This document shows positions 3,723-61,348 of a stretch of 64,000 nt of DNA, piece after piece. The stretch comes from Alphaproteobacteria bacterium. Its GTDB lineage: Bacteria > Pseudomonadota > Alphaproteobacteria > Bin95. The position numbers and the translations under genes were made by a program. Numbering within the stretch: position 1 is the first letter of the stretch; the number at the start of each line of letters is the position of its first letter. The DNA is taken from NCBI GenBank assembly GCA_026710105.1, contig JAPORR010000028.1, positions 13,633 to 77,632 on the forward strand, given 5' to 3'. The notes beneath the pieces were generated by a model. The model did no database searches. It was given only the letters and a program-made list of their open reading frames with translations, and had not been told where the DNA came from.

Positions 3723-3924
3723 CTATCCCGCCGCTTCCTCAAACCTTCCCCAGAGGGAAAAGGACAAGATCAATTCCGTGGATAAGGGGAGTAAAGGGAA
3801 TCTGGCATGGCTTTCTGTGCATGTGGGCAGGGGATAAGACCTGTTTCCACAGCCAGGAGCAGTTATATAAAAACAATAAATTAGACTCTCTTTATACTTT
3901 GGCAGAGAAAGCACTCCCGGCAGC

Positions 3925-4929: not shown

Positions 4930-5942
4930 GCCGGCTGGCTGTTATCCTCTTCAATCTCGGCGGACCCGACAGCCCGGAGGCTGTCAAGCCGTTCCTGCGC
5001 AATCTGTTTTTCGACCCCGCCATCATTCCCGCCCCAGCACCCGTGCGCTTTCTGCTGGCGCGTTATATCGCCGGCAAGCGGACCGCGCCGGCGCGCGCCG
5101 TCTATGAACAGCTCGGCGGGTCGTCACCATTGCTGGCGCAGACCGAAGCGCAGGCCCGCGCGCTTGAGGCCGCACTGACGGCGCAGGGCCAGGAGGCACG
5201 CTGCTTTATCGCCATGCGCTACTGGCACCCGCGCGCCGCGGCGGCGCTGGCGGCAGTGCGCCTCTACGAGCCGGACGAGATCGTGGCCCTGCCGCTCTAC
5301 CCGCAATACTCGACCACGACATCCGGCTCTTCGCTTGCGGAGTGGCAGAAACTGGCTGGCGCGGATGCGAGGCTGCGGGTTCTGTGCTGCCATCCCCTGC
5401 TGGAGGGACTTGTGGAAGCCTGGGCCGGTCCACTGGCTGAAGCCGTGCGCTGCGCGCGCGCTGCTGCCCCGGTCCGCGTGTTGTTCTCGGCGCATGGCTT
5501 GCCGGAGCGGGTGGTTGCCAAGGGTGACCCCTATGCTTGGCAGGTGGCGCGCACCGCCGAGGCGTTGCAGGCGGCCGCCGAGGCGCGTCTGGATGGCCTT
5601 AGCGGAGTCGACTGGCGTGTGACTTGGCAGAGCCGGGCCACGCCCGAGAAGTGGCTCCAACCAGACACGGGAGTGGAAGTCGAGGCGGCGGCAAGGGAAG
5701 GGCTGGCGCTGGTATTGGCACCGATCGCTTTCATTTCCGAACATTCCGAGACGCTCGTGGAACTTGACCTCGAATACCGGGCCGTGGCGGAGCGCGCTGG
5801 CGCAGCGGCTTGGGAGCGTGTGGCGACGCCAGGCACGGCACCAAACTATATCGAGGCCCTGGCAGCGCTCGTGCTCGACTCGCAGCCACAGAAGCGCCTC
5901 TGTCCGGCTTCCTGCTCTGGCTGTCCAGTCAAGGCAGCATGA
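4926..5942 (+). CDS. hemH: ferrochelatase
   Basis: VILFNLGGPDS and LPLYPQYS motifs; 4-nt overlap with hemE. Confidence 0.9.
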   Translation: MSRLAVILFNLGGPDSPEAVKPFLRNLFFDPAIIPAPAPVRFLLARYIAGKRTAPARAVYEQLGGSSPLLAQTEAQARALEAALTAQGQEARCFIAMRYWHPRAAAALAAVRLYEPDEIVALPLYPQYSTTTSGSSLAEWQKLAGADARLRVLCCHPLLEGLVEAWAGPLAEAVRCARAAAPVRVLFSAHGLPERVVAKGDPYAWQVARTAEALQAAAEARLDGLSGVDWRVTWQSRATPEKWLQPDTGVEVEAAAREGLALVLAPIAFISEHSETLVELDLEYRAVAERAGAAAWERVATPGTAPNYIEALAALVLDSQPQKRLCPASCSGCPVKAA

Positions 5943-6253
5943 GCTAAGGATGGGGGACACCGTGTTTGCGGCAGACCGCCATCAACAGCCAGACCGACCA
6001 GGCGACCATGCAGACGGCCCATCTCCTCCGCTAGTGCCGGGAACAGCTCCTCTTGAAACTGATGCCAGAAATCGGATAGCTTCGCGCATAGGGTCATGGG
6101 GGTTGCCTTCTTGGTAGCTTGCAAACCCAAGATACCACAGGGTGACCTCGAAACCCGGACCGCCTCTACCCTGAAATCAGCTCATATCAGCGGAAATCAC
6201 CCTCCTTCGAACGGTTTTGCAAGAGGCCCTATCAGTCAAGAATATAGTTCCCC

Positions 6254-11779: not shown

Positions 11780-12355
11780 TCAGAAAGTGGCGGCGCTCGG
11801 CGCGGCTAGCGGGGCGCGCAGGAAGGCGAGGGCGGTGCGGCCGTAACGGCGGCAGTCGATCAGTCCGGGCAGGTCTGGCAAGTCGTCATATGCGCTTTCG
11901 ACGACGACCAGCGCGCCCGGTTGCAGCCAGCCCTCGCGCCCGAGGGCGACCAGCGCCGGGACGGCCAAGCTCGCCCCCCAGGGCGGGTCCAGCCAGACAA
12001 TGTCATGGGCGCCTGGTGCCGGTCCTGGTGCGGCGGCGTCGCGGGCATGGATGGCGCCGGCGCGGCCAACATTGCGGCGGAGTAGGGCGAGCGCCGTCGG
12101 GTCCCGCTCAATGAAGCTGGCCCGGCCCGCGCCGCGTGAGAGCGCCTCCAGCCCGACCGCGCCCGTGCCGGCGAAGACATCGAGAAAGGCCGCCCCGGCG
12201 AGTGGCGGCCCGAGGCCGGCATGCAGAAGGCGGGCGAACCCTGCCTCGCGCACACGCCCGGTGGTTGGGCGCACGGCCCGGTCTGCCGTCGCGGCAAGCC
12301 GCCGCCCGCGCCAGCGCCCACCGACGATGCGGATCGCGGATCGGGTTCCAGCCAC
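11780..12355 (-). CDS. rsmD: 16S rRNA (guanine966-N2)-methyltransferase
   Basis: IRIVGGRWRGRRL and FLDVFAGTGAVGLEALSRGA motifs. The likely start is a GTG at 12355 preceded by GAGGAGG; the ATG at 12430 adds an atypical extension. Confidence 0.75.
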   Translation of the reverse strand: MAGTRSAIRIVGGRWRGRRLAATADRAVRPTTGRVREAGFARLLHAGLGPPLAGAAFLDVFAGTGAVGLEALSRGAGRASFIERDPTALALLRRNVGRAGAIHARDAAAPGPAPGAHDIVWLDPPWGASLAVPALVALGREGWLQPGALVVVESAYDDLPDLPGLIDCRRYGRTALAFLRAPLAAPSAATF

Positions 12356-12459
12356 CGGATAACGCCGCCTCCTCGATTGCCGGACAGCATTCGGTATTCT
12401 ACACTGAAACCGGCTCGGGGTGGCTCCCATGCGCCGCCCGCTCTCGAAGGAGTGACAAG

Positions 12460-13644
12460 ATGCGTAGGATCCTTATCGCTCTCGCTGCGGCAACGGTGAT
12501 GACCTCCGCAGCGGCTGCCGGAGATGAAATCAAGATCGGCGTGATGGTGGGTTTCACCGGGCCGATCGAGTCGCTGGCACCGAATATCGCTGCCGGCGCG
12601 GAGCTCGCCATCAAGGAGGTCAGCGACAGCAAGGCGCTGCTAAGTGGCGCCATGGTGACGCCGGTGCGCGGCGATACGACTTGCATCGACGCCGCGGCCG
12701 CAACCGCCGCGGCCGAGCGGTTGATTACCGCCGACCGCGTGAACGCCATCGTCGGTGGCGATTGCTCGGGCGTGACCACGGCCATGTTGCAAAATGTGGC
12801 TATGCCGAACGGCGTCGTCATGATTTCGCCGTCGGCCACCTCGCCGGCGCTCTCCACGCTGGATGACAACGGCCTGTTCTTCCGCACTTCGCCTTCGGAC
12901 GCGCGCCAGGGCCAGGTGATCGCCGAGGTGCTGAAGGAGCGCGGCGTGGGCACCGTCGCCATCACCTATACCAACAACGACTACGGCAAGGGACTCGCCG
13001 ACAGCATCGCCACCAATTTCAAGGCGGTGGGCGGTGCGGTGACCATCGAGGCCGCGCATGAGGACGGCAAGGGCGACTACGCGGCCGAAGTCGCCGCGCT
13101 CGCCGCCGCGGGCGGCGATGTGCTCGTTGTCGCCGGCTATCTCGACCAGGGTGGCAAAGGCATCATCCAGAGCGCGCTCGACACCGGCGCTTTCGACACT
13201 TTCCTGCTGCCGGACGGCATGATCGGCGACAGCTTGGTCGAGGCCATCGGCGCGGACCTGAACGGCTCCTTCGGGACGGTCCCGGGCACGGACAGCAAGG
13301 GCGCCGCCACCTTCGTCGACTTAGCCGCGGCCGCCGGCTTCAAGGCCGGCCCGTTCAACGGCGAGGCCTATGACGCCGCGGCGCTCATCCTGCTGGCTAT
13401 GCAGGCCGCCGGCTCCGCCGACAGCGGCAAGCTGAAGGACCATGTGATGGCGGTCGCCAATGCGCCGGGCGAGAAGATCCACCCGGGCGATCTCGGCAAG
13501 GCGCTCGAAATTATCGCCGCCGGCGGCGATGTGGACTATGTCGGCGCGTCTGCGGTCGAGCTGATCGGGGCGGGCGAGAGCGCCGGCAATTACCGCGAGA
13601 TCGCGATCGAGGACGGCAAGATCGTCACAGTTCGGTATCGCTGA
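12460..13644 (+). CDS. branched-chain amino acid ABC transporter substrate-binding protein (LivJ/LivK family)
   Basis: Signal peptide MRRILIALAAATVMTSAAAAG then KIGVMVGFTGP; the ATG at 12460 has an AGGAG SD. The track ORF start at 12136 is a spurious 5' extension over rsmD. Confidence 0.85.
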   Translation: MRRILIALAAATVMTSAAAAGDEIKIGVMVGFTGPIESLAPNIAAGAELAIKEVSDSKALLSGAMVTPVRGDTTCIDAAAATAAAERLITADRVNAIVGGDCSGVTTAMLQNVAMPNGVVMISPSATSPALSTLDDNGLFFRTSPSDARQGQVIAEVLKERGVGTVAITYTNNDYGKGLADSIATNFKAVGGAVTIEAAHEDGKGDYAAEVAALAAAGGDVLVVAGYLDQGGKGIIQSALDTGAFDTFLLPDGMIGDSLVEAIGADLNGSFGTVPGTDSKGAATFVDLAAAAGFKAGPFNGEAYDAAALILLAMQAAGSADSGKLKDHVMAVANAPGEKIHPGDLGKALEIIAAGGDVDYVGASAVELIGAGESAGNYREIAIEDGKIVTVRYR

Positions 13645-13679
13645 CGGAGAGCGGGCGGCGCAGCGCGCATGCCCGGCGG

Positions 13680-14453
13680 ATGATCCGTATCGCCGGCGTC
13701 TCGAAGCGATTCGGCGGCGTGGTGGCTGTTGACGGCGTGAACCTTGAGATCGCGGAGGGCTCGATCACGGGGTTGATCGGCCCGAACGGTGCCGGCAAGA
13801 CGACGCTTTTCAACCTGATCGCCGGCGCGCTCGCGCCGGACGCGGGACGGATATTCCTCGGCGGCGAGGAAATCACCGGCCTCCCGCCGCACGAATTATT
13901 CCATCGCGGCTTGCTCCGGACCTTCCAGATCGCGCATGAGTTCTCCTCGCTCACGCTCCGCGAGAACCTGATGACCACGCTCGCGTGCCAGACCGGGGAG
14001 AGCCTGCTGGGGGCGTGGCTCAAGCCGACCAAGGTCCGCGAGGAAGAGCGCACCAATCGGGAGAGGGCCGATGAGGTGATTGACTTTCTCGGCCTCGGCC
14101 CCGTCGCCGACGAGCGGGCGGGCAATCTTTCGGGCGGCCAGAAGAAGCTCCTGGAGCTCGGCCGGACGATGATGGTCGATGCCCGCATCGTGCTGCTGGA
14201 CGAGGTCGGCGCCGGCGTCAACCGCACGCTGCTCCGCCGGATAACCGAGTCCATCCTCCGTCTCAATCTCGAGCGCGGCTACACCTTCTGCATGATCGAG
14301 CACGACATGGAGTTCATCGCCCGGCTCTGCGACCCGGTGATCGTGATGGCGGAAGGCCGTGTGCTGACCGAAGGCCCCGCCGACCGGGTCATGGTGGACG
14401 AGGCCGTGATCGAAGCCTATCTCGGCCGCGGCGGACGGACGGCGGCCTCGTGA
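13680..14453 (+). CDS. livG: branched-chain amino acid ABC transporter ATP-binding protein
   Basis: GLIGPNGAGKTTLFN Walker A, LSGGQ signature, LivG-type C-terminus. Confidence 0.85.
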   Translation: MIRIAGVSKRFGGVVAVDGVNLEIAEGSITGLIGPNGAGKTTLFNLIAGALAPDAGRIFLGGEEITGLPPHELFHRGLLRTFQIAHEFSSLTLRENLMTTLACQTGESLLGAWLKPTKVREEERTNRERADEVIDFLGLGPVADERAGNLSGGQKKLLELGRTMMVDARIVLLDEVGAGVNRTLLRRITESILRLNLERGYTFCMIEHDMEFIARLCDPVIVMAEGRVLTEGPADRVMVDEAVIEAYLGRGGRTAAS

Positions 14454-14473
14454 GCTTCCTCGAAGGTGAGGCC

Positions 14474-15154
14474 ATGACGGGCGGCTATGGCGGCGCCGAC
14501 ATCATTCGCGGCTGCGATCTCGCCGCGGAACGGGGCGAGATCGCCGTCATCGTCGGCCCCAACGGGGCGGGCAAATCCACGGCGATGAAGGCGCTGCTCG
14601 GCGTCGCGCGGCTCCGCTCCGGCAGCGTGCGGCTCGGCGGTGAGGACATTACCGCGCTCTCACCCCAAGACCGGGTCGGGCGCGGCATGGCCTTCGTGCC
14701 GCAGACCGACAATGTGTTCGCCACCCTGACAGTGCGCGAAAACCTGGAGATGGGCGCGTTCCTGCGGCGCAGCGGCGTTGCCCGGACTATGGAGCGGGTC
14801 TTCGATCTGTTCCCGGCCGTACGTGAGAACCGGGACCGGCAGGCGGGCGCGCTTTCGGGCGGCCAGCGCCAGCAGGTGGCCATCGGCCGCGCGCTGATGA
14901 CGGAGCCCGCCGCGCTGCTGCTCGACGAGCCGACGGCCGGCGTCTCGCCGATCGTGATGGACGACTTGTTCGAACGCATGCTGGAGATCCGCAGCGCGGG
15001 CGTCGCTATACTGATGGCCGAGCAGAACGCCCGTCAGGCGCTCGCCATTGCCGACCGGGGCTATGTGCTCGTGACCGGCCAGAACCGCTTCGCTGACACC
15101 GGCGCCGCATTGCTCGCCAACCCGGAAATGCGCCGGTCCTTCCTCGGAGGCTGA
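14474..15154 (+). CDS. livF: branched-chain amino acid ABC transporter ATP-binding protein
   Basis: GPNGAGKSTAMKAL Walker A, LSGGQRQQVAIGRAL; the ATG at 14474 has an AGGTGAGG SD. Confidence 0.85.
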   Translation: MTGGYGGADIIRGCDLAAERGEIAVIVGPNGAGKSTAMKALLGVARLRSGSVRLGGEDITALSPQDRVGRGMAFVPQTDNVFATLTVRENLEMGAFLRRSGVARTMERVFDLFPAVRENRDRQAGALSGGQRQQVAIGRALMTEPAALLLDEPTAGVSPIVMDDLFERMLEIRSAGVAILMAEQNARQALAIADRGYVLVTGQNRFADTGAALLANPEMRRSFLGG

Positions 15155-48583: not shown

Positions 48584-49948
48584 TCAGTCGTCATCCACCT
48601 CCGGCATCAGCACGAATTCCGGATAGGCCTCAATGCCGAGTTCAGCGGCGTCCTGGCCGAGTTCCTCGACCGTATGGGAGACACGCGCACCTATTGTGTA
48701 TTTAATGCCGAGCCAGACGAGCAGCGACGTAGCGAAGACGAAGGCGCCAACGGCGAGCACCCCGGTAAGCTGAACCAACACATCGCCGCCGGCGGCGATG
48801 CACACCGCCATCGTGCCCCAGACACCGGCGAACAGATGCGCCGGGATCGCGCCCACGACATCGTCGATCTTCAGGGCCTCCAACACCTTCAGGCCCGCCG
48901 TGGTGACCGAGCCGCCGATCAGGCCGATCACGACTGCCCAGTAATGCTCGACGAGGTCCGGCCCGGCGGTAATGGCGACCAGACCCCCTATGGCGCCATT
49001 GAGGCCCGCCAGCAGGTCGGTGCGTCCGAATAACGGCCGCGCGAGCGCCAGCGCCGCCAGCACGCCGCCAGCGGCGGCAAGATTGGTGTTGGCGAGGATA
49101 TTGGCGAGCGCCACGACATCGGCTGCGCCGCCAAGCGCCAGTTGCGAGCCGCCATTGAAGCCGAACCAACCCATCCAGAGGATGAACACACCAAGCGTCA
49201 CGGCCGGCACATTGGAGGGCGGCGTGGCCTTGGCGGAGCCGTTCGCACGGAACTTGTTGCGGCGCGGCCCGACGATCAACGCGCCGGCGAGCGCCGCCCA
49301 GCCGCCGGTCGAGTGGACGATGGTGGAGCCGGCGAAATCCTGAAAGCCCATGGCGTCGAGCCAGCCGCCGCCCCAGGTCCAGGCGCCGACGACGGGATAG
49401 ATGAGGGCGGTCAATATGGCGATGAAGAGGAAGAACGAGACCAGCTTGACCCGCTCCGCCAGCGCTCCAGAGACGATCGAGGCGGTGGTGGCCACGAAGA
49501 CCATTTGGAAGAACCAGTCGGACATGGTGGCATAGCCATTGCTGACCACGGCCTCGACCTGTTCGGGCGCGGCGTCCGCGGCCGTCAGCAGGGCGATTTC
49601 CTCGGCCGTTGTGCCGTAGAGGAAGGAGAAAGTCCCGATCCAGCCGCCATCCTCGACACCGACATACATGAGGTTGTAGCCGATGAAATAGAAGGTGAGC
49701 CCGGCAATGGCATAGAGGCCGATATTCTTCAGACAGATGACCGAGGCGTTCTTGGTGCGCACCGAGCCTGCCTCGAGCATGGTGAAGCCGGCGCACATCC
49801 ACATCACCAGCACGCCCCAGACGAGGAAGGCGAAGCTGTCGAGGACGAATTTCATCTCCGCTCCGGGCGCGGCGGCCGCGGCGGCATCCGGATATAGCAT
49901 GACGAAGGCCCCGCCCAGAAGGGCGAGTGCTGCCATTGTCCGCGCCAT
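48584..49948 (-). CDS. amtB: ammonium transporter
   Basis: Signal-like N-terminus MARTMAALALLGGA, Amt signature FAGSTIVHSTGGWAALAGALIVGPR, eleven TM helices; start at 49948. Confidence 0.85.
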   Translation of the reverse strand: MARTMAALALLGGAFVMLYPDAAAAAAPGAEMKFVLDSFAFLVWGVLVMWMCAGFTMLEAGSVRTKNASVICLKNIGLYAIAGLTFYFIGYNLMYVGVEDGGWIGTFSFLYGTTAEEIALLTAADAAPEQVEAVVSNGYATMSDWFFQMVFVATTASIVSGALAERVKLVSFFLFIAILTALIYPVVGAWTWGGGWLDAMGFQDFAGSTIVHSTGGWAALAGALIVGPRRNKFRANGSAKATPPSNVPAVTLGVFILWMGWFGFNGGSQLALGGAADVVALANILANTNLAAAGGVLAALALARPLFGRTDLLAGLNGAIGGLVAITAGPDLVEHYWAVVIGLIGGSVTTAGLKVLEALKIDDVVGAIPAHLFAGVWGTMAVCIAAGGDVLVQLTGVLAVGAFVFATSLLVWLGIKYTIGARVSHTVEELGQDAAELGIEAYPEFVLMPEVDDD

Positions 49949-50089
49949 TGAGACAGACAGGCCTGGGGCGCGTCCGTGCTCTTTTGGAAGATGAAATTGT
50001 CCTGCTGCCTGCATTACGCGTGTTCCTCGCTCGACGAGCCCTTTAGACCCCTGTATCGCTGCTTTGACGGATTGTCCTGCCAAATATAT

Positions 50090-50400
50090 AGACCTATATC
50101 CGTGACTAGCATCCGGTTTCGGGCTTGCTCTTGTTCGTGCTTTATCCCAATATGCGTGGTGAGGGTGCCCGTGACCGCCCTCGCCCGACCGCTTATGCTC
50201 TGGAGCGGCCACCTATGCCTTTGATAGAGACCCACCGCCAGCTTGTCTACCTGCTGGTGCAGCGCCAACTGGCGGCGTCTGGAAGGGCTGCTTGAAGCAG
50301 AGCGCCAGCTCTACAATGCGGCGCTTGAGGAGCGCATCGACTGCTCTCGCAAGACAGGGAAGGGCCACCGGAAGCAGCGGCCGCCCCCATCCCGTATTCG
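50090..50400 (+). mobile_element. left arm of a ~300-bp imperfect inverted repeat containing a frameshifted 5' fragment of an IS200/IS605-family tnpB (orfB)-like gene
   Basis: The reverse complement of 57420-57713 aligns with this arm at high identity, e.g. ctatatccgtgact..catccggtttcgg and gatagagacccaccgccagcttgtctacc...ggaagggctgcttgaagcagagcgccagctctacaatgc. The encoded ..YLLVQRQLAA / LEGLLEAERQLYNAALEERIDCSRKTGKG resembles the TnpB N-terminus (RLYP..Q..L....G..RFVYN..L..R...Y...GKG). Confidence 0.5.
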
Positions 50401-50481
50401 TCAAGTCGCTCTATAGTTTCTACACAAGCTAAGTCCCATACTGATATAAGCTGGAGCCCCGAAGTGGGAGGGGGCTGTGCT

Positions 50482-52560
50482 ATGGGCTGGCGGATCGGTG
50501 TGGATATCGGCGGCACCTTCACTGATGTTGCGGTGCTGGACGAGGAGAGTGGGCGTGCCGGCATCGCCAAGGTGCCGACCACGCCCCGTGATTTCGGCGC
50601 CGCTGTGGTCGATGGCATAGGGGCGGCGATGCGCGACCACGGCATCGGGCCTGAGTCGGTCTCCCTCGTCTCCCACGCCACCACCGTTGTCACCAATGCG
50701 CTGCTGGAGGAGAAGGGCGCCGATATCGCGCTCATCGCGACCGAGGGGTTCCGCGATGTGCTGGAGCTCCGGCGCTCGGCCCGCGCGGACCTCTACGACC
50801 TCTTCCAGAACGCGCCGGCTGTGTTAGTGCCGCGCCGCCGGCGCTTCGAGCTGCGGGAACGGATCGACGCCCAGGGCGAAGTCGTGACGCCTCTCGACGA
50901 AGCCGGGCTCGACGCGGTGGTCGCGCGTATTCACGAGCTCGGTGTGGAGGCGGTGGCCGTCTGCCTCATGTTTTCCTTCCTGAACGACGCGCATGAGCGC
51001 CGTGTGGGCGACCGGCTCCGCGCCGCCCTTCCCGGCCTGCCGGTCTTCCTCTCCAGTGAGGTGCTGCCCGAAATCCGCGAGTTCGAGCGCACCAGCACCA
51101 CCGCGGTCTGTGCCTATGTCGGGCCGGTTCTGGCTTCCTATCTGGACCGGCTGGAGGGGGCGCTTGCCGGGCTCGGCCTGCCCTCGCTCTACGTAATGGG
51201 TTCGAATGGCGGCGTATTCGATGTGCCCGAGGCGCTGAAGATGCCGGCGGCAGTGGTCGAATCAGGACCTGCTGCCGGGGTCATCGCCGCACAGCGCATG
51301 GGCCGGCAGCTCGGCCGGCCCAACCTCATCTCCTTCGACATGGGTGGCACCACGGCCAAGGCAAGCTTGATCGAGAACGGCCGCATCGAGACCACCTCCG
51401 ATTACGAGGTCGGCGGCGAAGGCAATGTCGGGCGCTGGCTTCACGGCACCGGCCATCCCATCAGGGTGCCGGTGATTGACCTCGCGGAAGTGAGCGCAGG
51501 TGGCGGCAGCATCGCCTGGCTCGATCCGGGCGGCGCGCTCCGGGTTGGACCGCAAAGCGCGGGCGCAGAACCTGGTCCCGCTTGCTACCGACAGGGCGGC
51601 GCGCGGCCCACCGTGACGGACGCCAATGTCGTGCTGGGCTATCTCAGCCGCAAGCACTTGCTGGGTGGGCGGCTGCCCATCGACGCGGCGGCCTCGGAGA
51701 TGGCGATCCGCAAGCATATCGCGGATCCGCTCGGCCAGGATGTGGCGCAAGCTGCTGCCGGCATCCTGCGGGTCGTCAACAACAGCATGGCGGAGGCGCT
51801 GCGCATCGTCTCGGTGGAGCGCGGGCACGACGCACGCGAATTCTCGCTCGCCGCCTTTGGGGGCGCTGGCCCCGTCCATGCCGCAGCGCTGGCGGAGGAG
51901 CTCGGCATTGCGGAGGTGATCGTACCGCCGATCCCGGGCGGGTTTTCTGCCCTCGGCCTGGTCGCGACGGATCTTCGCCGCGACTATGCTCGCACCTTCT
52001 ACGCGCGGATCGACGAGGCCGATCCGCGCGTGCTCGACCAGCGCCTTGGGGAGCTGGAAGCAGCAGCACGTGCCATGCTGCGGAATGCCGGCCTGCCGGA
52101 GGCCGACTGTGCCATCGAACGGTCCGCCGACTGCCGCTATGCCAGACAGGCCTATGAGCTGACCGCGCCACTCGGCCTCGGCCCCGTGACCCACGCCCTT
52201 CTGGAGGCACTCGCCGACGCGTTCCATGAGCGGCATCTGCGCACTTACGGCCACAAGAACCCCGATGAGCCGGTGCAGATGGTGAATATCCGCGTGACCG
52301 CGACGGGCCGGTTGCCGGGCGTGGCGTTCCATGCGGATGCCGAGGCGCCGCCCGCCGCCGGGGAACCACAACGCGAGGTGTGGTGGTTCGGTGAGCCGGT
52401 GCGCTGCCCCGTTATCGCCCGGGGCGCTTTGCCCGCGGGCGCTGAGGGCCACCCGGGCCCGATCATCGTGGAGGAGATGGACTGCACAACCGTCGTGCCG
52501 CCCGGCTGGCGGGCTCGGCGCGACGAGCACGGATTCATCCTGGTGACGAGGAGTGCGTGA
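50482..52560 (+). CDS. hyuA: hydantoinase/oxoprolinase family protein, A subunit (HyuA-like)
   Basis: RIGVDIGGTFTDVAVLD N-terminus and a second sugar-kinase-like ISFDMGGTTAKASLI motif. The ATG at 50482 has a GGGAGGGGG SD. Confidence 0.85.
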   Translation: MGWRIGVDIGGTFTDVAVLDEESGRAGIAKVPTTPRDFGAAVVDGIGAAMRDHGIGPESVSLVSHATTVVTNALLEEKGADIALIATEGFRDVLELRRSARADLYDLFQNAPAVLVPRRRRFELRERIDAQGEVVTPLDEAGLDAVVARIHELGVEAVAVCLMFSFLNDAHERRVGDRLRAALPGLPVFLSSEVLPEIREFERTSTTAVCAYVGPVLASYLDRLEGALAGLGLPSLYVMGSNGGVFDVPEALKMPAAVVESGPAAGVIAAQRMGRQLGRPNLISFDMGGTTAKASLIENGRIETTSDYEVGGEGNVGRWLHGTGHPIRVPVIDLAEVSAGGGSIAWLDPGGALRVGPQSAGAEPGPACYRQGGARPTVTDANVVLGYLSRKHLLGGRLPIDAAASEMAIRKHIADPLGQDVAQAAAGILRVVNNSMAEALRIVSVERGHDAREFSLAAFGGAGPVHAAALAEELGIAEVIVPPIPGGFSALGLVATDLRRDYARTFYARIDEADPRVLDQRLGELEAAARAMLRNAGLPEADCAIERSADCRYARQAYELTAPLGLGPVTHALLEALADAFHERHLRTYGHKNPDEPVQMVNIRVTATGRLPGVAFHADAEAPPAAGEPQREVWWFGEPVRCPVIARGALPAGAEGHPGPIIVEEMDCTTVVPPGWRARRDEHGFILVTRSA

Positions 52561-52561
52561 T

Positions 52562-54352
52562 ATGGCTGCTGCCACGAAGACCGATGCCGCCACCTTCGAG
52601 GTCGTCAAGAACAGCCTGTATGCGGTCGCCGCGGAAATGAAGGTGGTACTCGCCAAGACGGCCTATTCCCCCATCCTGAAGGCGGCGGGGGACTATTCTT
52701 GCGGCGTGTTCGACGACCGGGGCGAGATGGTGGCTCAGGGCCCAGATCTGCCGATCCATCTGGGTTCCATGCCGGATGCCGTGCGTGCGGTGGTGCGCGC
52801 CTGGGAGGAGATCGAGCCGGGCGATGTGTTCGTCCACAACGACCCCTATTTCGGTGGCTCGCATCTGCCGGACGTGAATGTTGTCTCGCCCGCTTTCGTG
52901 GACGGCGCGCTGCTCGGCTTCTGCTGCGTGCGCGCCCACTGGCCGGATATCGGCAGCGCCACTCCTGGTAGCTATGGCGCGGTGACGGACATCTATGGCG
53001 AGGGACTGCGCCTGCCGCCGGTGCGCATTCACCGAGGCGGGGTCGTCAACCGCGATGTGGAGGACATGATCTTCGCCAATGTCCGCACCCCGGACGAGCG
53101 CCGGGGCGACCTGCGCGCCCAGATTGCGGCCAACCGCCGAGCCTCCGAGCGCCTGGCCGCGCTTGCCGGCAAATATGGTGCCGGCACCCTCAGGCGCATC
53201 ATGCAGGAGGTGATGGACTACTCCGAGGCGATGATGCGTACGCTGCTGCGCGACATCCCGGATGGGGAAGGTGCGTTCGAGGATTTTTGCGACGGGGATG
53301 GCATCGCCGGCTCGCATCAGGACGAAACCTTCGACATCAGGCTGCGCATCATCAAGCAGGGCGATGGGGTGAGAGTGGATTTCGAGGGTTCTGACCCGCA
53401 GGTCGCCGGGCCGATGAACGCGCCGCTCTCGGTCACCGCCTCGGGCGTGTTCGCGGCGCTGAAGATGGTGATAGACTCGGCGGGCGTCGTGCCGCCCAAT
53501 TCCGGCGCCTGGCGCCCCGTCAAGGTGCTTGCGCCCGAAGGCTCGGTGGTGAACGCGCAATATCCGGCCCCGGTCGTCTATGCCAATCACGAGATGTCGC
53601 ACCGGATCTGCGACATGGTGTTCGGCGCGCTGGCGGTGCTCGTTCCGGACCGGGTGATGGCCTGCTCCCAGGGCACCTCGGCTGTGCTGACGCTTGGCGG
53701 TACCGACTACCGCACAGGAGAGCGCTATGTCAGCTACGAGACGATCAAGGGCGGTTTCGGCGCTCGCCCAGACCGCGACGGCATCAGCGCGGTGGCGAGC
53801 GGCATTTCCAATACGATGAACACGCCGGTGGAGCTCATCGAAATGAGCTTTCCGGTGCGGGTCGAGTCCTACGAGCTGCGGCCTGATTCCGGCGGCGCGG
53901 GCCGTTGGCGGGGCGGGCTCGGCACGCGCCGGACCTGGCGGATCCTGGAGCGCGACGCGCACGCCGCCGTGTGTTGCGAGCGCACCAAGTCCCCGCCCTT
54001 CGGCATAGAAGGCGGGGCGGCGGGCGCACCTGCCCGCATCTCGGTCGTCGATCCAGACGGGACGGAGCGCCTGCTGAACAGCAAGGGCTCCTTCGAGGCG
54101 CCGGCTGGCGCGCTGGTGGTGTTCGACGTGCCGGGCTCGGGCGGCTACGGCCCGCCGGCGGAACGCGACCCGGCCCGGCTCCGGGAAGATCTGGCGGACG
54201 GCTATGTCACGCCCGAAGGCGCTCGCCGCGATTACGACGCGGCCGCCCTTGATGCCCTCTCCGGCACCCGCCCTGGCGCCCGGCTCTCTGTCAGAGCGCC
54301 AGAGCTTTCTGCAGCGCCGGCCGTTCCTTCAGCCGATCCACATAGGCCTTAA
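52562..54352 (+). CDS. hyuB: hydantoinase B / oxoprolinase family protein (HyuB-like)
   Basis: DPATFEVVKNSLYAVAAEM, AKTAYSPILKAAGDYSCGVFD and NDPYFGGSHLPD HyuB motifs; begins 2 nt after the hyuA stop. Confidence 0.85.
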   Translation: MAAATKTDAATFEVVKNSLYAVAAEMKVVLAKTAYSPILKAAGDYSCGVFDDRGEMVAQGPDLPIHLGSMPDAVRAVVRAWEEIEPGDVFVHNDPYFGGSHLPDVNVVSPAFVDGALLGFCCVRAHWPDIGSATPGSYGAVTDIYGEGLRLPPVRIHRGGVVNRDVEDMIFANVRTPDERRGDLRAQIAANRRASERLAALAGKYGAGTLRRIMQEVMDYSEAMMRTLLRDIPDGEGAFEDFCDGDGIAGSHQDETFDIRLRIIKQGDGVRVDFEGSDPQVAGPMNAPLSVTASGVFAALKMVIDSAGVVPPNSGAWRPVKVLAPEGSVVNAQYPAPVVYANHEMSHRICDMVFGALAVLVPDRVMACSQGTSAVLTLGGTDYRTGERYVSYETIKGGFGARPDRDGISAVASGISNTMNTPVELIEMSFPVRVESYELRPDSGGAGRWRGGLGTRRTWRILERDAHAAVCCERTKSPPFGIEGGAAGAPARISVVDPDGTERLLNSKGSFEAPAGALVVFDVPGSGGYGPPAERDPARLREDLADGYVTPEGARRDYDAAALDALSGTRPGARLSVRAPELSAAPAVPSADPHRP

Positions 54353-54899
54353 GGTGCGGCATGTCCGAGTAATCGACGCCGAAACGTTCGCACATCAGGC
54401 AGGCATGGCCGGTGATCGTGTCGGCGGCCGTGAACGCGCCCGCGAGATAGGCGCGGCCTTCCATATGGGTGTCGACCGCTTGGACTGTGCGCGTCATCAG
54501 CCTAAGAGCGCGCGTGGCGTGCTCTTCCGACCGGCGCTCCGGCTTGAGAAGGATGGTCTCGACCACATAATTGTTCATGGGCCCCATGATCATGCCTTCG
54601 CCGTAATGCAGCCACTGCAAGTAGTCCGGGAAGACGGGTGACGAGGCGGCGGGCACTAGCCGTCCACCGCCGTGGCGCGCGACCAGATATTCGGCGATGG
54701 CCGCGCTTTCGAAAATTCGCACCTCGCCGTCCTCAAGAACCGGCACGCGGCCGTTCGGACTGATCGCCAGGAACTCGGGCGCGCGCATGGCGGGGTCGCC
54801 GAGCTTGTCGAACCGCGCCAGCTCGAAGTCGAGCCCCAACTCGAACATCAGCCAGGCCGAACGGACGGCACGGGTATTGGGCGCAAAATAGAGCTTCAT
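54291..54899 (-). CDS. glutathione S-transferase
   Basis: MKLYFAPNTRAVRSAWLMFELGLDFE thioredoxin-fold N-terminus, SPNGRVPVLEDG, GST C-domain. Confidence 0.8.
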   Translation of the reverse strand: MKLYFAPNTRAVRSAWLMFELGLDFELARFDKLGDPAMRAPEFLAISPNGRVPVLEDGEVRIFESAAIAEYLVARHGGGRLVPAASSPVFPDYLQWLHYGEGMIMGPMNNYVVETILLKPERRSEEHATRALRLMTRTVQAVDTHMEGRAYLAGAFTAADTITGHACLMCERFGVDYSDMPHLKAYVDRLKERPALQKALAL

Positions 54900-54936
54900 T
54901 TTGGCTCCCGTTATTCCCTGTTGTGCTGTCTGCGGT

Positions 54937-56175
54937 CTATGCCGTGGTTCGGGCGGCACGGGGCGGCCAGTCTACCTGGCGGCGCATCTCCAGCCGCGCG
55001 ATCTGCTGGCGGTGAACCTCGTCCGGCCCGTCGGCGAAGCGCAGTGCGCGCATTCTCGACCACATGAATGACAGCTTGAAGGCCTGGCTCATTGCTCCGC
55101 CGCCATGAGCCTGCATAGCGTCATCAATCACCTGCAGCGCCATGTTCGGTGCCGCTACCTTTATCATGGCGATTTCCTGCCGTGCCGCCTTGTTGCCGAC
55201 CGTGTCCATCATATGGGCGGCCTTGAGCGTCAGCAGGCGGCACATCTCGATATTGATGCGCGCATCGGCCACCCGCTCGCGGAAATTGTCCCGATCGCCG
55301 ACAGCCGTGCCCCAAGTCACCCGCTCGGTACCGCGCCGGCACATCATCTCCAACGCGCGCTCGGCCACGCCGATGATACGCATGCAATGGTGGATGCGGC
55401 CGGGGCCGAGGCGACCCTGCGCGATCTCGAAGCCGCGGCCTTCGCCGAGCAGCATGTTCGAGGCCGGCACGCGCACATCCCTGAAGTCCACCTCGCCATG
55501 ACCGTGCGGCGCATCGTCGAACCCCATCACATTCAGCATCCGCACGACGTCTATGCCGGGCGCATCGGTTGGCACCAGGATCATCGATTGCTGGTTGTAG
55601 CGCGGGCCGTCTGGGGCGGTCTTGCCCATGAAGATCAGGACCTTGCAACGTGGGTCGCCAATGCCCGAAGTCCACCATTTACGCCCGTTGATGACATAGT
55701 CGTTGCCGTCGCGCTCGATCCGGCTCTCGATATTGGTGGCATCGGAGGAGGCGACGCGTGGCTCTGTCATGGCAAAGGCAGAGCGGATCTCGCCTGCCAA
55801 CAGCGGCTCCAGCCATTGTTTCTTCTGCTCCGGCGTGCCATAGCGTTCCAGTACCTCCATATTTCCGGTGTCCGGTGCCGAGCAATTGAACACTTCTGGG
55901 GCCCAGTTGATCCGGCCCATGACTTCGCAGACCGGGGCGTATTCGAGGTTGGTCAGGCCGCCGCCGAGCTCGCTTTCGGGCAGGAACAGGTTCCAGAGGC
56001 CCTCCCCGCGCGCCTTTTCCTTCAGCTCCTCCAGGACAGGGATGACCTTCCAGCGGTTGCCGCCTTCCTCGAGCTGCTCGTAATAGACATCCTCATTGGG
56101 ATAAACGTAGCGGTCCATGAAGTCCTGGACGCGGCCGACCAGTTCCTTGGTCCGATCGTTGAAATCAAAGTCCAT
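54937..56175 (-). CDS. acyl-CoA dehydrogenase family protein
   Basis: [21 protein letters not shown] signature and a C-terminal ACAD helical domain; start [12 protein letters not shown] at 56175. Confidence 0.85.
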
Positions 56176-56251
56176 ACGGGCGGTTCCCTCTCCGGCGAGC
56201 GCAATCGGTCGGGGCGACACTAGCGCAAGACGGCTCTAGCCGGAAGCCGGT

Positions 56252-57262
56252 TCAAACCCTGCCGGCAAGACCCTGCAGGGTGGTGTAGAGCGCGTCCTCG
56301 ACCGTTATGCCCTCTTCGGCTGTCCGGGCGCGGGCAGCGAGGCGCCGGTCACCCGGCAGCCGGGCCTCGCCATTGGCAAGCAGTCGCTCGAACAGCGCCT
56401 CGACATGGGCGAAGAATTCCGGTCCCGCCAGTCGCCCGGGGTCGATGGCGATGAAGGACTGGGCCCCGTTGGAGGGGCCGCCGTCGCGCTTGTGGTCGGC
56501 GGCGCTCTCATAGCCGAAGAACCCGCCGGAGAGACCCCCGGTCATCAGTTCCACCATGAGCGCGATCGAAGAGCCCTTGTAGCCCCCGAAGGGCAGTTGC
56601 ACGCCTGCCAGTATGGCTGCCGGGTCCGTCGTCGGCTGTCCGTCCGAGCCGAGGCCGGTGCCGGCGGGCACCGTATGGCCGTCCCGCGCCGCAATCTGGA
56701 TCTCACCCCGCGCCATCGCCGCCGACGCCTGGTCGAAGACCATCGGCGCCCTACCACCACCGCGCGGACAGGCAAAGGCCATCGGATTGGTGCCGAACAG
56801 CGCTTCCGTGCCGCCGGCGGGCGCCATGAAGCTCTGCGAGTTGACGAAGGTGAACGCGACCAGACCCGCCTCCGCCAAAGGCTCGATGTCAGGCCAGAGT
56901 GCGGCGAAATTGAATGAGTTTCGGATCGTCATGCAGGCGATGCCCTGCTCGTGCGCCTTGTCGGCCAGCGCGCCACGGCCGCGCGCAATGGCAAGCGGCG
57001 CAAAGCCCCGGCGCGCATCCACGGCGACCAACCCCGGCGCGGCATCGACGATCTCCGGTTCGGCCTGCGGGTCGGCGGCCCCGCTGTTCACCGATGCAAC
57101 ATAACCCGGTAGCCGGAACAGCCCGTGGCTCTTGCAGCCATCGGCCTCGGCGCGGGTGATATGGTCGGCGACCGCCTCCGCATTGGCGTGCGAGACACCG
57201 GCGTGGGACAGGGCGTCAAACGCGAGAGCGCGGCATTCCTTGAGCGAGATCGCAGCGGGCAT
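56252..57262 (-). CDS. Ldh_2 family (malate/L-lactate/Pyr2C-reductase type) dehydrogenase
   Basis: GCKSHGLFRLPGYV and GFAPLAIARG blocks typical of the Ldh_2 (MDH2/AllD/DpkA) family. Confidence 0.75.
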   Translation of the reverse strand: MPAAISLKECRALAFDALSHAGVSHANAEAVADHITRAEADGCKSHGLFRLPGYVASVNSGAADPQAEPEIVDAAPGLVAVDARRGFAPLAIARGRGALADKAHEQGIACMTIRNSFNFAALWPDIEPLAEAGLVAFTFVNSQSFMAPAGGTEALFGTNPMAFACPRGGGRAPMVFDQASAAMARGEIQIAARDGHTVPAGTGLGSDGQPTTDPAAILAGVQLPFGGYKGSSIALMVELMTGGLSGGFFGYESAADHKRDGGPSNGAQSFIAIDPGRLAGPEFFAHVEALFERLLANGEARLPGDRRLAARARTAEEGITVEDALYTTLQGLAGRV

Positions 57263-57329
57263 GGCCGGTCTCCTCCGAGGTAGTTGTGGAGCCTAGTCTG
57301 CAGCATAGACCCAGCCCCGGGCGATGAGG

Positions 57330-57713
57330 AAGCTAGCTGTGGGGGCACATCCTGTTTTGCTCGGGACTCAGAAGCTCCGGGCAGGGGGCAGGTTCCTGTC
57401 CCATGCCGGCATCGCTATTCAGGCCATGTAGGAGTGGAACGAAAGCAAATCGATAGCAGTCGATCCGCTCTTCGATCGCTGCATTGTAGAGCTGGCGCTC
57501 TGCTTCAAGCAGCCCTTCCAGGTGCAGCCAGTTGGCGCGGCGGCAGCAGACGGTAGACAAGCTGGCGGTGGGTCTCTATCAGGGCCATGAAGGGTGTCCC
57601 AGAGCCTGAGCGTTTGGGTAAGGCTGCTTACAGGCCCTTGCCACGCAAGTTGGGGCAAAACGGGAACGAAGGCAAGGCCGAAACCGGATGCCAGTCACGG
57701 ATATAAGTCCCTA
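57330..57713 (-). mobile_element. right arm of the inverted repeat with a second frameshifted tnpB-like 5' fragment, oriented inward
   Basis: Reverse complement of the left arm. It encodes MALIETHRQLVYRLLPPRQLAA / LEGLLEAERQLYNAAIEERIDCYRF; both arms share the same in-frame TGA and frameshift position and differ by a 3-nt indel. The arm ends exactly at the fbiC ATG. Confidence 0.5.
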
Positions 57714-60134
57714 ATGGATCCTCTGCACTATATTGATCGTCGCCCGGAGCCCGACGAGGCGCTAGCGCTAGCCGATTACGATGCGCTTGAGGCCCTAATG
57801 GGCGCGGCGGCCCGGCTGCGCGACTGGTTGCACGGGCCGCGCGTCAGCTATTCGCGTAAGGTGTTTATTCCGCTGACGCATCTCTGCCGAGATGTCTGTC
57901 ATTACTGCACCTTCGCGAAGCCGCCGCGCCGGGGCGAACCGGCCTATATGACGCCAGAGCGGGTGCTCGAAGTGGCGCGGGCAGGGGCGGCGGCCGGCTG
58001 CAAGGAGGCGCTGTTCACACTCGGCGACAAGCCGGAGCGGCGCTACCGCGCGGCGCGCGCGGTCTTGGCTGGGTTCGGTTACAGGACGACGCTCGATTAC
58101 CTCAAGGCGATGGCGCAGCTTGTCTTCGATGAGACCGGCCTGCTGCCGCATCTCAATCCTGGCCTGGCGACGGTGGAGGAGCTAGCCGGCCTGCGCCGCG
58201 TCTCGGCCTCGATGGGCATCATGCTGGAAAGCGCCTCGGACCGGCTGTGCGCAAAGGGCATGCCGCATTACGGCTCGCCGGACAAGCAGCCGGCGCGTCG
58301 GCTTGAGACCATCCGGCTTGCGGCCGCAGCGAAGGTGCCGTTCACCTCCGGCATCCTGATCGGCATCGGCGAGACGCGGCGCGAGCGCATCGAAGCTCTG
58401 CTGGCGCTGCGCGAGATCGACGATGCCACGGGCGCGGTGCAGGAGATCATCGTCCAAAATTTCCGTGCCAAGCCCGGCACCAAAATGGCCGCCGCGCCGG
58501 AGCCGGAGCTGGAGGAACTGCTCTGGACCATTGCCGTGGCCCGCCTGGTTTTCGGCCCGGCCGCCTCGATTCAGGCGCCGCCCAACCTCTCACCGGGCGC
58601 GCTTGGACCCATCCTGGCCGCTGGCATCAACGATTGGGGTGGTGTCTCGCCGGTGACACCGGATTTCGTCAACCCCGAAGCCCCCTGGCCACATCTGGAG
58701 ACGTTAGCGCACGAGACGGCCGCGGCAGGCAAGCAACTGGTCGAGCGGCTGACAGCCTATCCGCGCTATCTGGACGAGGAGTGGTTGGCGCCGGCCATGC
58801 TGACGCGGGCCCTGCAGCTCTGTGATGCGGACGGCCTGGCGCGGCCGGACGACTGGTCGCCGGGTGCACTAACACCACCGGCACCGATTCCGCGGCGCGG
58901 CGGGACGGGCGCCGATGTCTCGGCGCTGCTCACGGAAGCCGAAGCGGGTGCCGCCCTCGGCGAAGCTGACATCATACGATTGTTCCAGGCCCGCGACGAG
59001 GAGTTCCACGCCGTTGCCGAAGCCGCCGACAGGATGCGGGCGCGGCTCGTAGGCGACGAAGTCACCTATGTGGTGAACCGCAATATCAACTACACCAATG
59101 TCTGCTATTTCAAATGCCAGTTCTGTGCCTTCTCGAAGGGTCGGCTTTCCGAGAACCTGCGCGGCCGCCCCTATGACCTCCACCTCGGCGAAATCCGTCG
59201 CCGCGTTGCCGAGGCTTGGGAACGCGGCGCGACCGAGGTCTGCATGCAGGGGGGTATTCACCCCGATTATACGGGCCGCACCTATCTCGATATCCTGGAC
59301 GCGGTGAAGGCGGCGGCGCCCGATATCCATGTCCATGCCTTCACACCGCTTGAGGTGTTCCAGGGGGCGCATACGCTGGGCGTCTCCGTCGAAGCCTTCC
59401 TGCGGGACCTGAAAGCCGCCGGCCTCGGCACGCTGCCCGGCACGGCGGCGGAGGTGCTGGACGACGAGGTGCGCCGTATCATCTGCCCGGACAAGATCGA
59501 TACGCAGCAATGGCTGGATGTCATGGAAACGGCGCACGGGCTCGGTATCCGGTCTACGGCGACGATCATGTACGGCCATGTCGAGCGCCCGGTCCACTGG
59601 GCACGCCATCTCCTCCGGCTGCGCGCCTTGCAGCAGCGCACTGGCGGGTTTACCGAGTTCGTGCCGTTACCCTTTGTCCACATGGAAGCCCCGATCTATC
59701 TCAAGGGGCGCGCACGCCGGGGGCCGACCTTCCGCGAGGCGGTGTTGATGCACGCTGTCGCGCGCCTTGTGCTGGCGCCGCACTTCGTCAATATCCAGAC
59801 TTCCTGGGTCAAGATGGGGCCGGAGGGCGTTGCGGCGGCCCTGGGAGCCGGCGCCAACGATCTCGGTGGCACACTGATGAACGAAAGCATCACCCGGGCC
59901 GCTGGCACGGTCCACGGCCAGGAGATGGAGCCGCATCGCATGGAGGAGACAATCCACGCCGCGGGCCGCCAGCCGGCCCAGCGCATGACAGATTACAGCC
60001 GCCCACCCGAGCGGCAGGTGCTGCGGTCCCGACAGGCCGCGCCGCTCGCCGAAATCGTGGAAACACCCACCCGCAAATACGAACACGCCGCCCCCAGATC
60101 TCTCTACCGCCCAGGCTTGTCCGCCGCCGGGTGA
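57714..60134 (+). CDS. fbiC: bifunctional FO synthase (7,8-didemethyl-8-hydroxy-5-deazariboflavin synthase, CofG+CofH fused)
   Basis: Two radical-SAM halves with cysteine boxes CRDVCHYCTF and CYFKCQFCAF; 806 aa; start MDPLHYIDRR at 57714. Confidence 0.85.
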   Translation: MDPLHYIDRRPEPDEALALADYDALEALMGAAARLRDWLHGPRVSYSRKVFIPLTHLCRDVCHYCTFAKPPRRGEPAYMTPERVLEVARAGAAAGCKEALFTLGDKPERRYRAARAVLAGFGYRTTLDYLKAMAQLVFDETGLLPHLNPGLATVEELAGLRRVSASMGIMLESASDRLCAKGMPHYGSPDKQPARRLETIRLAAAAKVPFTSGILIGIGETRRERIEALLALREIDDATGAVQEIIVQNFRAKPGTKMAAAPEPELEELLWTIAVARLVFGPAASIQAPPNLSPGALGPILAAGINDWGGVSPVTPDFVNPEAPWPHLETLAHETAAAGKQLVERLTAYPRYLDEEWLAPAMLTRALQLCDADGLARPDDWSPGALTPPAPIPRRGGTGADVSALLTEAEAGAALGEADIIRLFQARDEEFHAVAEAADRMRARLVGDEVTYVVNRNINYTNVCYFKCQFCAFSKGRLSENLRGRPYDLHLGEIRRRVAEAWERGATEVCMQGGIHPDYTGRTYLDILDAVKAAAPDIHVHAFTPLEVFQGAHTLGVSVEAFLRDLKAAGLGTLPGTAAEVLDDEVRRIICPDKIDTQQWLDVMETAHGLGIRSTATIMYGHVERPVHWARHLLRLRALQQRTGGFTEFVPLPFVHMEAPIYLKGRARRGPTFREAVLMHAVARLVLAPHFVNIQTSWVKMGPEGVAAALGAGANDLGGTLMNESITRAAGTVHGQEMEPHRMEETIHAAGRQPAQRMTDYSRPPERQVLRSRQAAPLAEIVETPTRKYEHAAPRSLYRPGLSAAG

Positions 60135-60269: not shown

Positions 60270-60606
60270 AGGCAGGTCCATCGAATCGTGCAACAGGCGC
60301 AGAATATCAATTGTCGGTGGGATATCCGACGATCCAGCCCGGTCAATACCAGATGCCGCCCCGTCGTCCCTTGCGCGCGACCTGAAGAACCATCAGGCCT
60401 TCGGCAATGTCATTTCGTTCCCTCACGCCGGCAACATGGGGACCGGTTGCAAGCGCGTCGATGGTCTCGGTCAGTATCTCAGCGTAGACGCGCGCCTGGA
60501 CCTCTCCGAACCGCTCCGCCGTCCACCGGACGATGTTCCGGAAATCGGGGCTTCGGCCGCAGATGTCAAACGGATCCGCCATTGGCGGCCGGTCATCGAT
60601 CGCCAT
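60270..60606 (-). pseudogene. parE: ParE/RelE-family toxin gene, apparently frameshifted
   Basis: The ATG at 60606 overlaps the parD 3' end by 14 nt including its stop. Frame 0 gives ..FRNIVRWTAERFGEVQARVYAEILTETIDALATGPHVAGVRERNDIAEGL.. (ParE helical half) and stops at 60343. The ParE-like C-terminus ..IDILRLLHDSMDL continues in the +1 frame. Confidence 0.5.
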
Positions 60607-60898
60607 CTGCACGCGATCTTGGATCACCAAGAGCTTCATCGGCCAGAGCCGACAGGCGGTCATGCAACAATTCCGTAGTGTCGAAGGCCTGGAAACGGCC
60701 CGCCGCGATATCTGTGATCCCCGTATCGACTGCCTCGCGCATACCCTTCAGGCGAAGATCGTCCAGGGTCTCCCGCCGCTCGACCAGTCTGAGGCCTTCG
60801 CGGATAACTTCGCTGGCATTCTGGTAGCGGCCGGAATCGACCAGCCTGGTAACGAAATCCGCCTGACGGTCCGTCAAGACGACATTGCGCGTCGGCAT
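60593..60898 (-). CDS. parD: ParD-family (COG3609, RHH) antitoxin
   Basis: VVLTDRQADFVTRLVDSGRYQNASEVIREGLRLVERRE matches ParD antitoxins. The start is 60898 or 60928. Confidence 0.7.
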   Translation of the reverse strand: MPTRNVVLTDRQADFVTRLVDSGRYQNASEVIREGLRLVERRETLDDLRLKGMREAVDTGITDIAAGRFQAFDTTELLHDRLSALADEALGDPRSRADGDR

Positions 60899-60922
60899 GT
60901 CCAGAGTCCCTAAACTTGGCAT

Positions 60923-60937
60923 TGGCATATTATGCCA
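60923..60937. promoter_or_regulatory. perfect 7-1-7 palindrome TGGCATA-T-TATGCCA immediately upstream of parD (candidate autoregulatory operator)
   Basis: The inverted repeat was read directly; it overlaps or abuts the alternative parD start. Confidence 0.5.
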
Positions 60938-61348
60938 CAATCCGTTGCAAGGCAAGGCATTCGGGCTTGTCCAACTGGAGGCGCGGCAAGGTTTGCGATA
61001 GACTGCGATCCCGTGCCGGACCGGTGCGAATTGACGGCAATCGGCCAGCGGGGAGACGCCGCCCATGTCCGACAATGAAGGCCCCGATTCAGTCGCCGCT
61101 GGCACGGCTGACATCATGGACAACCTGATGCCCGGCGCGGCCCCGGGTTCCCGTGAATCCACCTGCCCGGCCAACGCGCGCCACCGCCAGCAAGGTCTCG
61201 ATCTGCGCCTCGTCGAAGCGCGCCAGGTATTCGCCAAGACGCCGGCTCGAGGGCACGCGGCCAAGACCCAGCAGACGGCGACCGACCCGGTCCTCGCACA
61301 GCGTGTCAAGAGCGTTCCGTTGCCCGCCGCCCTGTAGGCACACTGTCC

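Follow-up and report, generated by a model that had tools for sequence, protein, structure and literature searches.

Two copies of one sequence face each other in inverted orientation within the window (the whole 64-kb stretch analyzed here), at positions 50089–50366 of the forward strand and 57711–57450 of the reverse strand, and the question they raise is whether these arms are a working gene, a switch for the operons that they point toward, or the debris of a mobile element. Between the arms lie hyuA (50482–52560, +), hyuB (52562–54352, +), a GST gene (54291–54899, −), an acyl-CoA dehydrogenase gene (54937–56175, −) and Ldh_2 (56252–57262, −), with gene calls and Pfam families taken from the identical scaffold L085. 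The outer neighbors are an ammonium transporter gene on the left (48584–50014, −), whose start codon is 74 nt from the left arm, and the FO synthase gene (fbiC, a CofGH fusion; 57714–60134, +) on the right. The inverted repeat, which a first-pass annotation of this DNA had described, is real: a repeat search recovers three collinear arm pairs (50251–50349/57451–57549, of 99 nt at 88% identity, together with 50091–50165/57635–57709 and 50215–50263/57540–57588), and a 41-mer is the same in both arms (50279–50319 and 57521–57481), where the chance expectation is 0. When both arms are aligned end to end with MAFFT, global identity is 78% over the leader (the first ~125 nt), 87% over the tnpB part and 83% over the entire arm. 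The differences between the arms (17%) fall on third codon positions in 6/12 cases, a slight, nonsignificant excess in a sample too small for coding constraint to be deduced.

Each arm is built from a transposon terminus, a leader of ~100 nt and the first codons of a tnpB gene. In the left arm, the terminal inverted repeat of the left end, TAGACCTATATCCGTGACTAGCATCC (50089–50114, +), matches the family terminus GGGRMTTATAT, and is followed by the tnpB leader (50115–50214, +), which is conserved with the loci L082–L084 and partly with intact copies of the element, and by a tnpB remnant comprising codons 1–53 (50215–50366, +), with a frame-breaking 8-nt gap (5+3) near 50260/50261. A 41-nt filler (50367–50407) without similarity to any part of an intact element then connects the tnpB stump to the native DNA upstream of hyuA (50408–50481, +), which carries a −10-like box, TATAAGCT, and a ribosome-binding site, GGGAGGGG, and is identical in strain L102. 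In the right arm, the terminal inverted repeat GGGACTTATATCCGTGACTGGCATCC (57686–57711, −) ends 2 nt before the fbiC ATG (57714), the leader occupies 57589–57685 (−), as defined by alignments with the left arm and relatives, and the tnpB remnant comprises codons 1–48 (57450–57588, −), with a frame-breaking 5-nt gap near 57540/57539. Beyond this stump lie a 113-nt filler (57337–57449), at the place where relatives have the 5′ part of an enoyl-CoA hydratase gene, and the native divergent intergenic region between Ldh_2 and that hydratase (57263–57336), which has been kept and shares conserved blocks with L095 and L096. The distance from the outer start of the arm, which in both cases is the transposon terminus, to the ATG is 126 nt on the left and 123 nt on the right.

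The coding part of both arms is the N-terminus of TnpB, the RNA-guided nuclease of OMEGA systems, as had been proposed from the letters alone. With the two arms combined into a frame-corrected composite, Pfam HTH_OrfB_IS605 (PF12323; cut-off of 21 bits) gives 26.1 bits, compared with 19.2 bits when only the right arm is used and 12.5 when only the left is, and NCBIfam TnpB models are the top weak matches. In tblastn searches of the window with intact relatives, residues 1–16 and 19–48 align to the right arm in two different frames and residues 20–53 to the left arm, the E values of the arm matches reaching down to ~1e-12. Earlier translations of the arms agree with ours except that the frame-0 ORFs are both four codons longer than had been stated: the frame-0 peptides are MPLIETHRQLVYLLVQRQLAASGRAA and MALIETHRQLVYRLLPPRQLAAPGRAA, each followed by a stop (ending in AASGRAA on the left and AAPGRAA on the right), and the +1-frame peptides contain ANWRRLEGLLEAERQLYNAALEERIDCSRKTGKG and ANWLHLEGLLEAERQLYNAAIEERIDCYR, respectively. 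Compared with nine in-frame relatives, 5 nt are missing from the right arm and 8 nt (5+3) from the left, both gaps lying at the same GC-rich spot (CCGC/CGCGCC) and producing an equal frame shift, such that the corrected reading is RLLPP(R)RANW(L/R)(H/R)LEGLL. The first-pass annotation was thus right that the frame break is shared, and its position is codon 16–18, a few codons upstream of the site given there, between 'QLAA' and 'LEGLL'. It is plausible that both arms descend from a single, already broken tnpB; on the simplest reading of this alignment, the gaps would comprise a shared 5-nt deletion and a 3-nt indel, and they could also be nested, independent deletions in a GC-rich repeat, or a product of gene conversion.

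Both copies are truncated, as had also been claimed, the homology to tnpB stopping at codon 53 on the left (50366) and at codon 48 on the right (57450) and not at ~60 codons, and past these points the DNA resembles neither the other arm nor any stretch of the element. The window copies thus keep ~12% of the gene, and neither holds an uninterrupted tnpB frame, given the gaps at codon 16–18 and the truncation; with residues 1–53 only, the RuvC-like nuclease core (PF01385) and the TNB zinc ribbon (PF07282) are absent. In agreement with the earlier statement that the window contains neither an intact tnpB nor a tnpA, tblastn with the intact relatives finds no tnpB pieces in the 64-kb window besides the arms, and a rough probe with an IS608 TnpA sequence finds no Y1 tnpA match there. 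Omega-RNA motifs are found nowhere in the window, no second terminus lies near the arms, and the right-end motif does not occur in the window. The arms can therefore neither act as TnpB nor move alone, as they have no nuclease domain, omega-RNA or right end. Rfam gives no match in the arms, between them or in an intact element, and a JGI metagenome scan with the 41-mer gives none; plasmid searches return only distant TnpBs (≤36% identity) plus two Bosea tnpB genes.

We also considered whether the DNA following each truncation could be a right end or omega-RNA, making each arm a complete miniature, and rejected this reading, with local alignments no better than shuffles; the shared CTRAGTCCC motif and the GATATAAGC box are accounted for by chance and by the native hyuA −10 region. 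A family of short proteins was likewise discarded. The initial protein search gave only proteins of 41–91 aa, many of them fragments on short contigs or real stumps, and these matches are not evidence for such a family because full-length relatives were later found at the DNA level.

These relatives, the intact homologues that we sought outside the window, are present in many copies. A back-translated scan of one genome per species gave 228 confirmed relatives, and of the 80 loci retained, the majority have full-length protein products whose homology to a Bosea TnpB extends over its entire length. The closest are ORFs of 404–411 aa in Paracoccaceae, Silicimonas, Boseongicola and other alphaproteobacterial MAGs, with N-termini 73–79% identical to the stumps (for example MALVATHRQVVYRLLPQTRSSWRRLERVLEDQRQLYNAALEERIDCYRKTGKG), and the intact relatives carry OrfB_IS605 and Cas12f1-like TNB domains. 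The intact elements are ~1.4 kb long (1.33–1.5 kb), with tnpB as their sole ORF. Ten copies in the MAG CBDBPW01 share a block of ~1385 nt that starts ~124 nt 5′ of the start codon and ends ~25 nt past the stop, and since the corresponding distances in the arms are 126 and 123 nt, the outer ends of the arms correspond to the left end of the element. The element ends are inverted repeats over ~26 nt, GGGGATTATATACGTAAGTGACCATC and GATGGTCACTTACGTATATAATTCCC. Among the 27 full-length elements in which both termini are recognizable, 16 have perfect (8/8) target-site duplications abutting the termini, comprising 14 different, mostly AT-rich 8-mers (loci L003, L006, L007, L010, L012, L017, L018, L020, L021, L024, L025, L028, L029, L032, L033 and L036, with the element at ~3765–5267 in locus coordinates). 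Terminal inverted repeats and 8-bp duplications together indicate a cut-and-paste anatomy, and not that of IS200/IS605. The 3′ ends of the intact copies were also inspected: the last 200 nt are strongly conserved through and past the stop codon, and the structured 3′ region shows compensatory changes in 12/48 predicted pairs, distributed over several stems, so that this conserved, covarying region is of the kind expected for a putative omega-RNA. Some copies have themselves been interrupted, with an IS110-type transposase insertion in the tnpB of L030 (4963–6999), and a common insert of ~1.25 kb, encoding a maturase-like motif, in the tnpB of both L009 (4450–5705) and L008 (from 5016).

Relatives that lack the arms were compared with the window at each junction. 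In relatives with an 85%-identical FO synthase, the gene order is Ldh_2 (−), enoyl-CoA hydratase (+), fbiC (+), while in the window it is Ldh_2, native intergenic DNA, filler, right arm and fbiC, with Ldh_2 and fbiC orthologous to those of the relatives and the hydratase absent (L095 9167–10003 compared with window 57711–57716). The 74 nt upstream of Ldh_2 match the 77-nt divergent intergenic region of the relatives. The fbiC start codon is the same as in the relatives, and the terminus of the right arm displaces the native ribosome-binding site. The right arm is probably now part of the fbiC leader, and transcription of fbiC probably starts at the kept hydratase promoter and crosses the arm in antisense. 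The junction between the right arm and fbiC is also spanned by an independent assembly, L091. We note that fbiC has a second in-frame ATG with a GAGG ribosome-binding site ~28 codons downstream of the first, and that a ParD-antitoxin-family gene pair lies just downstream of fbiC (window 60343–60950; L085 6365–6920), at a place where the relatives L095 and L096 have two unrelated small ORFs.

On the left, the hyuA-hyuB pair of relatives (87% identical) lies beside a Rieske gene, without GST, acyl-CoA dehydrogenase or Ldh_2 neighbors. The homology of these relatives to the window begins at 50466, and the TATAAGCT box, ~45 nt upstream of the hyuA ATG, is conserved in relatives, with both the box and the ribosome-binding site found in L099 and L100. 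Strain L102 shares 97.6% identity with the window over 6.6 kb; its match begins at 50407 and extends only to the right, with 54 nt of unrelated sequence to the left of this point, such that the left arm sits at a junction that differs between close strains. Genes located 5 kb downstream of hyuB in the relative L100 (18628–22079) correspond to window 11795–15083, 35 kb upstream of hyuA, and this displacement is further evidence of large rearrangements in this genome.

The arms also coincide with breaks in assembly. Contigs of several independent assemblies end inside the arms or at the inner edge of the left arm: scaffold L085 has a gap at window 50358–50412 (L085 16905–17006), and the L087 and L102 contigs end there too. 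In L086 (GCA_026708705.1, JAPOUJ010000016.1), the inner right arm and the Ldh_2 block are attached, at window 57622, to a third left-end copy (2100–2210), which is diverged and neighbors yebC-ruvCAB; this junction is either a real recombinant or an assembly chimera. At the arms, the metagenome assembly behind the window is ambiguous, as the L085 gap and the L086 hybrid junction illustrate; an inverted orientation of the 7.1-kb block is supported by no contig.

Taking these observations together, we consider it very probable that the arms are the scars of two insertions by an already frameshifted lineage of the family, later truncated by local deletions or rearrangements. Each arm would then be the solo left-end remnant of a non-autonomous, tnpB-only transposon with 26-nt terminal inverted repeats and 8-bp duplications. 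A lineage of the family with the codon 16–18 deletion would have inserted at two AT-rich intergenic sites, tnpB not being needed for transposition. Of these insertions, one would have been placed 2 nt before the start codon of fbiC, its tnpB directed away from that gene, and the other next to the ammonium transporter gene. Subsequent deletions or rearrangements would have taken everything past codon 48 on the right or codon 53 on the left, and on the right side the deletion would also have taken the right end and the neighboring enoyl-CoA hydratase gene. The arms are ordinary debris at rearrangement junctions, neither a working gene nor a switch, and their present effects appear to be structural, in that a 260-bp inverted repeat can serve as a substrate for recombination and breaks metagenome assemblies. 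The appropriate annotation for the arms is a pair of tnpB pseudogene fragments, with a transposon end, and not regulators. The arms explain the inconsistent breaks and joins in assemblies of this organism around the hyuAB-Ldh_2 block, and they date the deletion that removed the enoyl-CoA hydratase gene and rebuilt the fbiC leader.

The most obvious competing idea, raised by the first-pass annotation, is that the arms were co-opted as promoter modules, with the tnpB promoter of each left end driving hyuA-hyuB and the Ldh_2 operon. Both stumps are indeed directed inward, toward these operons, no terminator lies between the right stump and Ldh_2, and by eye, members of the family repeatedly show a conserved GCGTGG block preceded by a TTGC-N17 spacing, which in the left-arm leader takes the form of a weak, promoter-like TTGCTC-N17-CAATAT that was seen by eye only and that the promoter scan did not report. 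The conservation of this weak spacing in the family makes read-through from the arms possible. However, hyuA and Ldh_2 each keep 74 nt of native upstream DNA, with boxes that are conserved in arm-less relatives, and the whole Ldh_2 promoter region of the relatives fits into a 77-nt intergenic space that is retained here, while a consensus scan finds no promoter in either arm. As both inward operons keep their native proximal upstream DNA, co-option is unnecessary, and the positions of the arms are explained without selection by the preference of the family for AT-rich 8-mers, which in a genome of 67% GC are concentrated in intergenic DNA. We therefore regard promoter co-option as unlikely. Less probable still is that 50089–57711 is a mobile insertion cassette, a 7.6-kb cargo transposon moved in trans by the transposase of the family. 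Since the repeats at the left and right ends of family members hardly differ, two inverted left ends would amount to a normal pair of ends, a 270-nt miniature with a perfect 8-bp duplication on the same scaffold indicates that the machinery acted in this genome, and in contig L086 the Ldh_2 side adjoins yebC-ruvCAB, a different flank. Against this, no target duplication surrounds the unit (CAAATATA on one side compared with TAATGGAT on the other), and Ldh_2 is already a near neighbor of fbiC in element-free relatives, such that the right junction arose in situ. Furthermore, hyuAB and Ldh_2 come from different ancestral contexts, the cargo (in the case of Ldh_2) is not foreign to the site, and the switch in L086, which occurs inside the arm at 57622, fits a recombinant or a chimeric assembly and not transposition of the unit.

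The label that was attached to the arms from their peptide, IS200/IS605 or IS1341-like, also implies a mechanism, namely mobilization as single strands by a Y1 TnpA, and of the readings considered here we find this the hardest to credit. In its favor, the parent family shares with the IS1341 group (IS200/IS605) elements of ~1.4 kb with a single tnpB as the sole gene and many copies per genome, and the domain is named after IS605 by both Pfam and NCBIfam. However, IS200/IS605 and IS607 elements have neither inverted repeats nor target duplications (PMC4810608, PMC13565253), and IS200/IS605 has subterminal hairpins and inserts 3′ of a fixed 4–5-nt target. The parent family has true inverted-repeat ends with perfect 8-bp duplications abutting them, and the variety among the duplicated 8-mers argues against a conserved target motif; the rough probe for Y1 TnpA in the window was likewise negative. 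The label therefore does not hold as a mechanism.

The arms themselves are an ordinary pair of transposon remnants of a known type. With TnpB they share their N-terminal 48–53 residues, as do the intact relatives, which in addition have the RuvC-type OrfB_IS605 domain, the zinc ribbon and the omega-RNA-like 3′ region; the window copies differ in being frameshifted and devoid of nuclease, zinc ribbon, omega-RNA and right end. Like solo IS ends produced by IS-associated deletions, they keep one terminus and sit at synteny breakpoints, and like families that give rise to MITEs, their parent family yields two-ended miniatures; they differ from these only in that three derivatives end within 45 nt in tnpB.

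The cut-and-paste anatomy of the parent family is a more notable by-product of this analysis than the stumps. Rare tnpB genes inside inverted-end transposons with DDE transposases have been described, as have solo tnpB copies bounded in the same way (Altae-Tran et al. 2023, PMC10691335), and the DDE partners reported are IS630, ISL2 and IS1031 (PMC13565253). The parent family resembles such transposons in its symmetrical ends and target duplication, in the distance of ~25–50 nt between the 3′ end of tnpB and the end of the element, and in having solo copies that are presumably moved in trans. It differs from them in the length of the duplication, which is 8 bp here and 2–3 bp for IS630, ISL2 and IS1031. 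The ends and duplications of this multi-copy family point to mobilization by something that is neither an IS605 nor an IS607 transposase; a transposase with matching ends was found in none of the 80 loci. Tentatively, the parent family may represent an undescribed class of TnpB/omega-RNA carriers, comprising tnpB-only elements with GGGRMTTATAT termini and 8-bp duplications that are moved in trans by a staggered-cut (DDE-type) transposase and give rise to miniatures in sponge-associated and marine Alphaproteobacteria. In that case, TnpB would be carrying out RNA-guided 'homing' in a cut-and-paste context, unlike in IS605 and IS607. The family also offers a convenient natural system in which to ask about the role of TnpB in a cut-and-paste element.

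Miniatures of the family were also found. Those at L082 5890–6270, L083 4070–4450 and L084 5444–5824 are orthologous internal-deletion derivatives located before a DSBA-family gene (in L082 and L084, downstream of mfd), in which an 'NAA' microhomology marks the point where the left end with codons 1–39 is fused to the final ~50 codons with the right end. The duplication AAACCTAA flanks the miniatures of L082 and L084, and in L083 a different left flank replaces the outer ~25 nt of the terminus. A further one is the 270-nt miniature at L085 250–520, which lies on the window's own scaffold, ~2.7 kb past window position 64000, with a cyclopropane-fatty-acid-synthase-like methyltransferase gene on one side and rplI on the other. 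This copy has the same termini, the perfect 8-bp duplication ATGCTGTT and a remnant of the omega-RNA 3′ motif. Three independent derivatives stop within ~45 nt of each other, at codon 53 (left arm), 48 (right arm) and 39 (L082–L084), and as such clustering is not predicted by random deletion, the cause may be a hotspot for deletions, or the left-end segment may be under selection.

A further remnant, of a different element, lies in the hemH/hemJ-like interval at window 5846–6252 (−), and comprises the left end and N-terminal stump of a DUF772-type (IS5/IS1182-like) transposase, with its own terminus, GGCCTCTTGCAAAACCG. We considered this transposase stump (5846–6130) as a partner of the tnpB family on account of the 13-mer GGGAACTATATTC beside it, and rejected it: 12 related loci put the end of the IS at GAGCCTCTTGCAGAACCG, and the GGGAACTATATTC motif therefore lies outside the DUF772-type IS. 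Just outside the same stump, the 24-mer GGGAACTATATTCTTGACTGATAG resembles the terminus of the tnpB family, and is either a solo terminus or a chance match.
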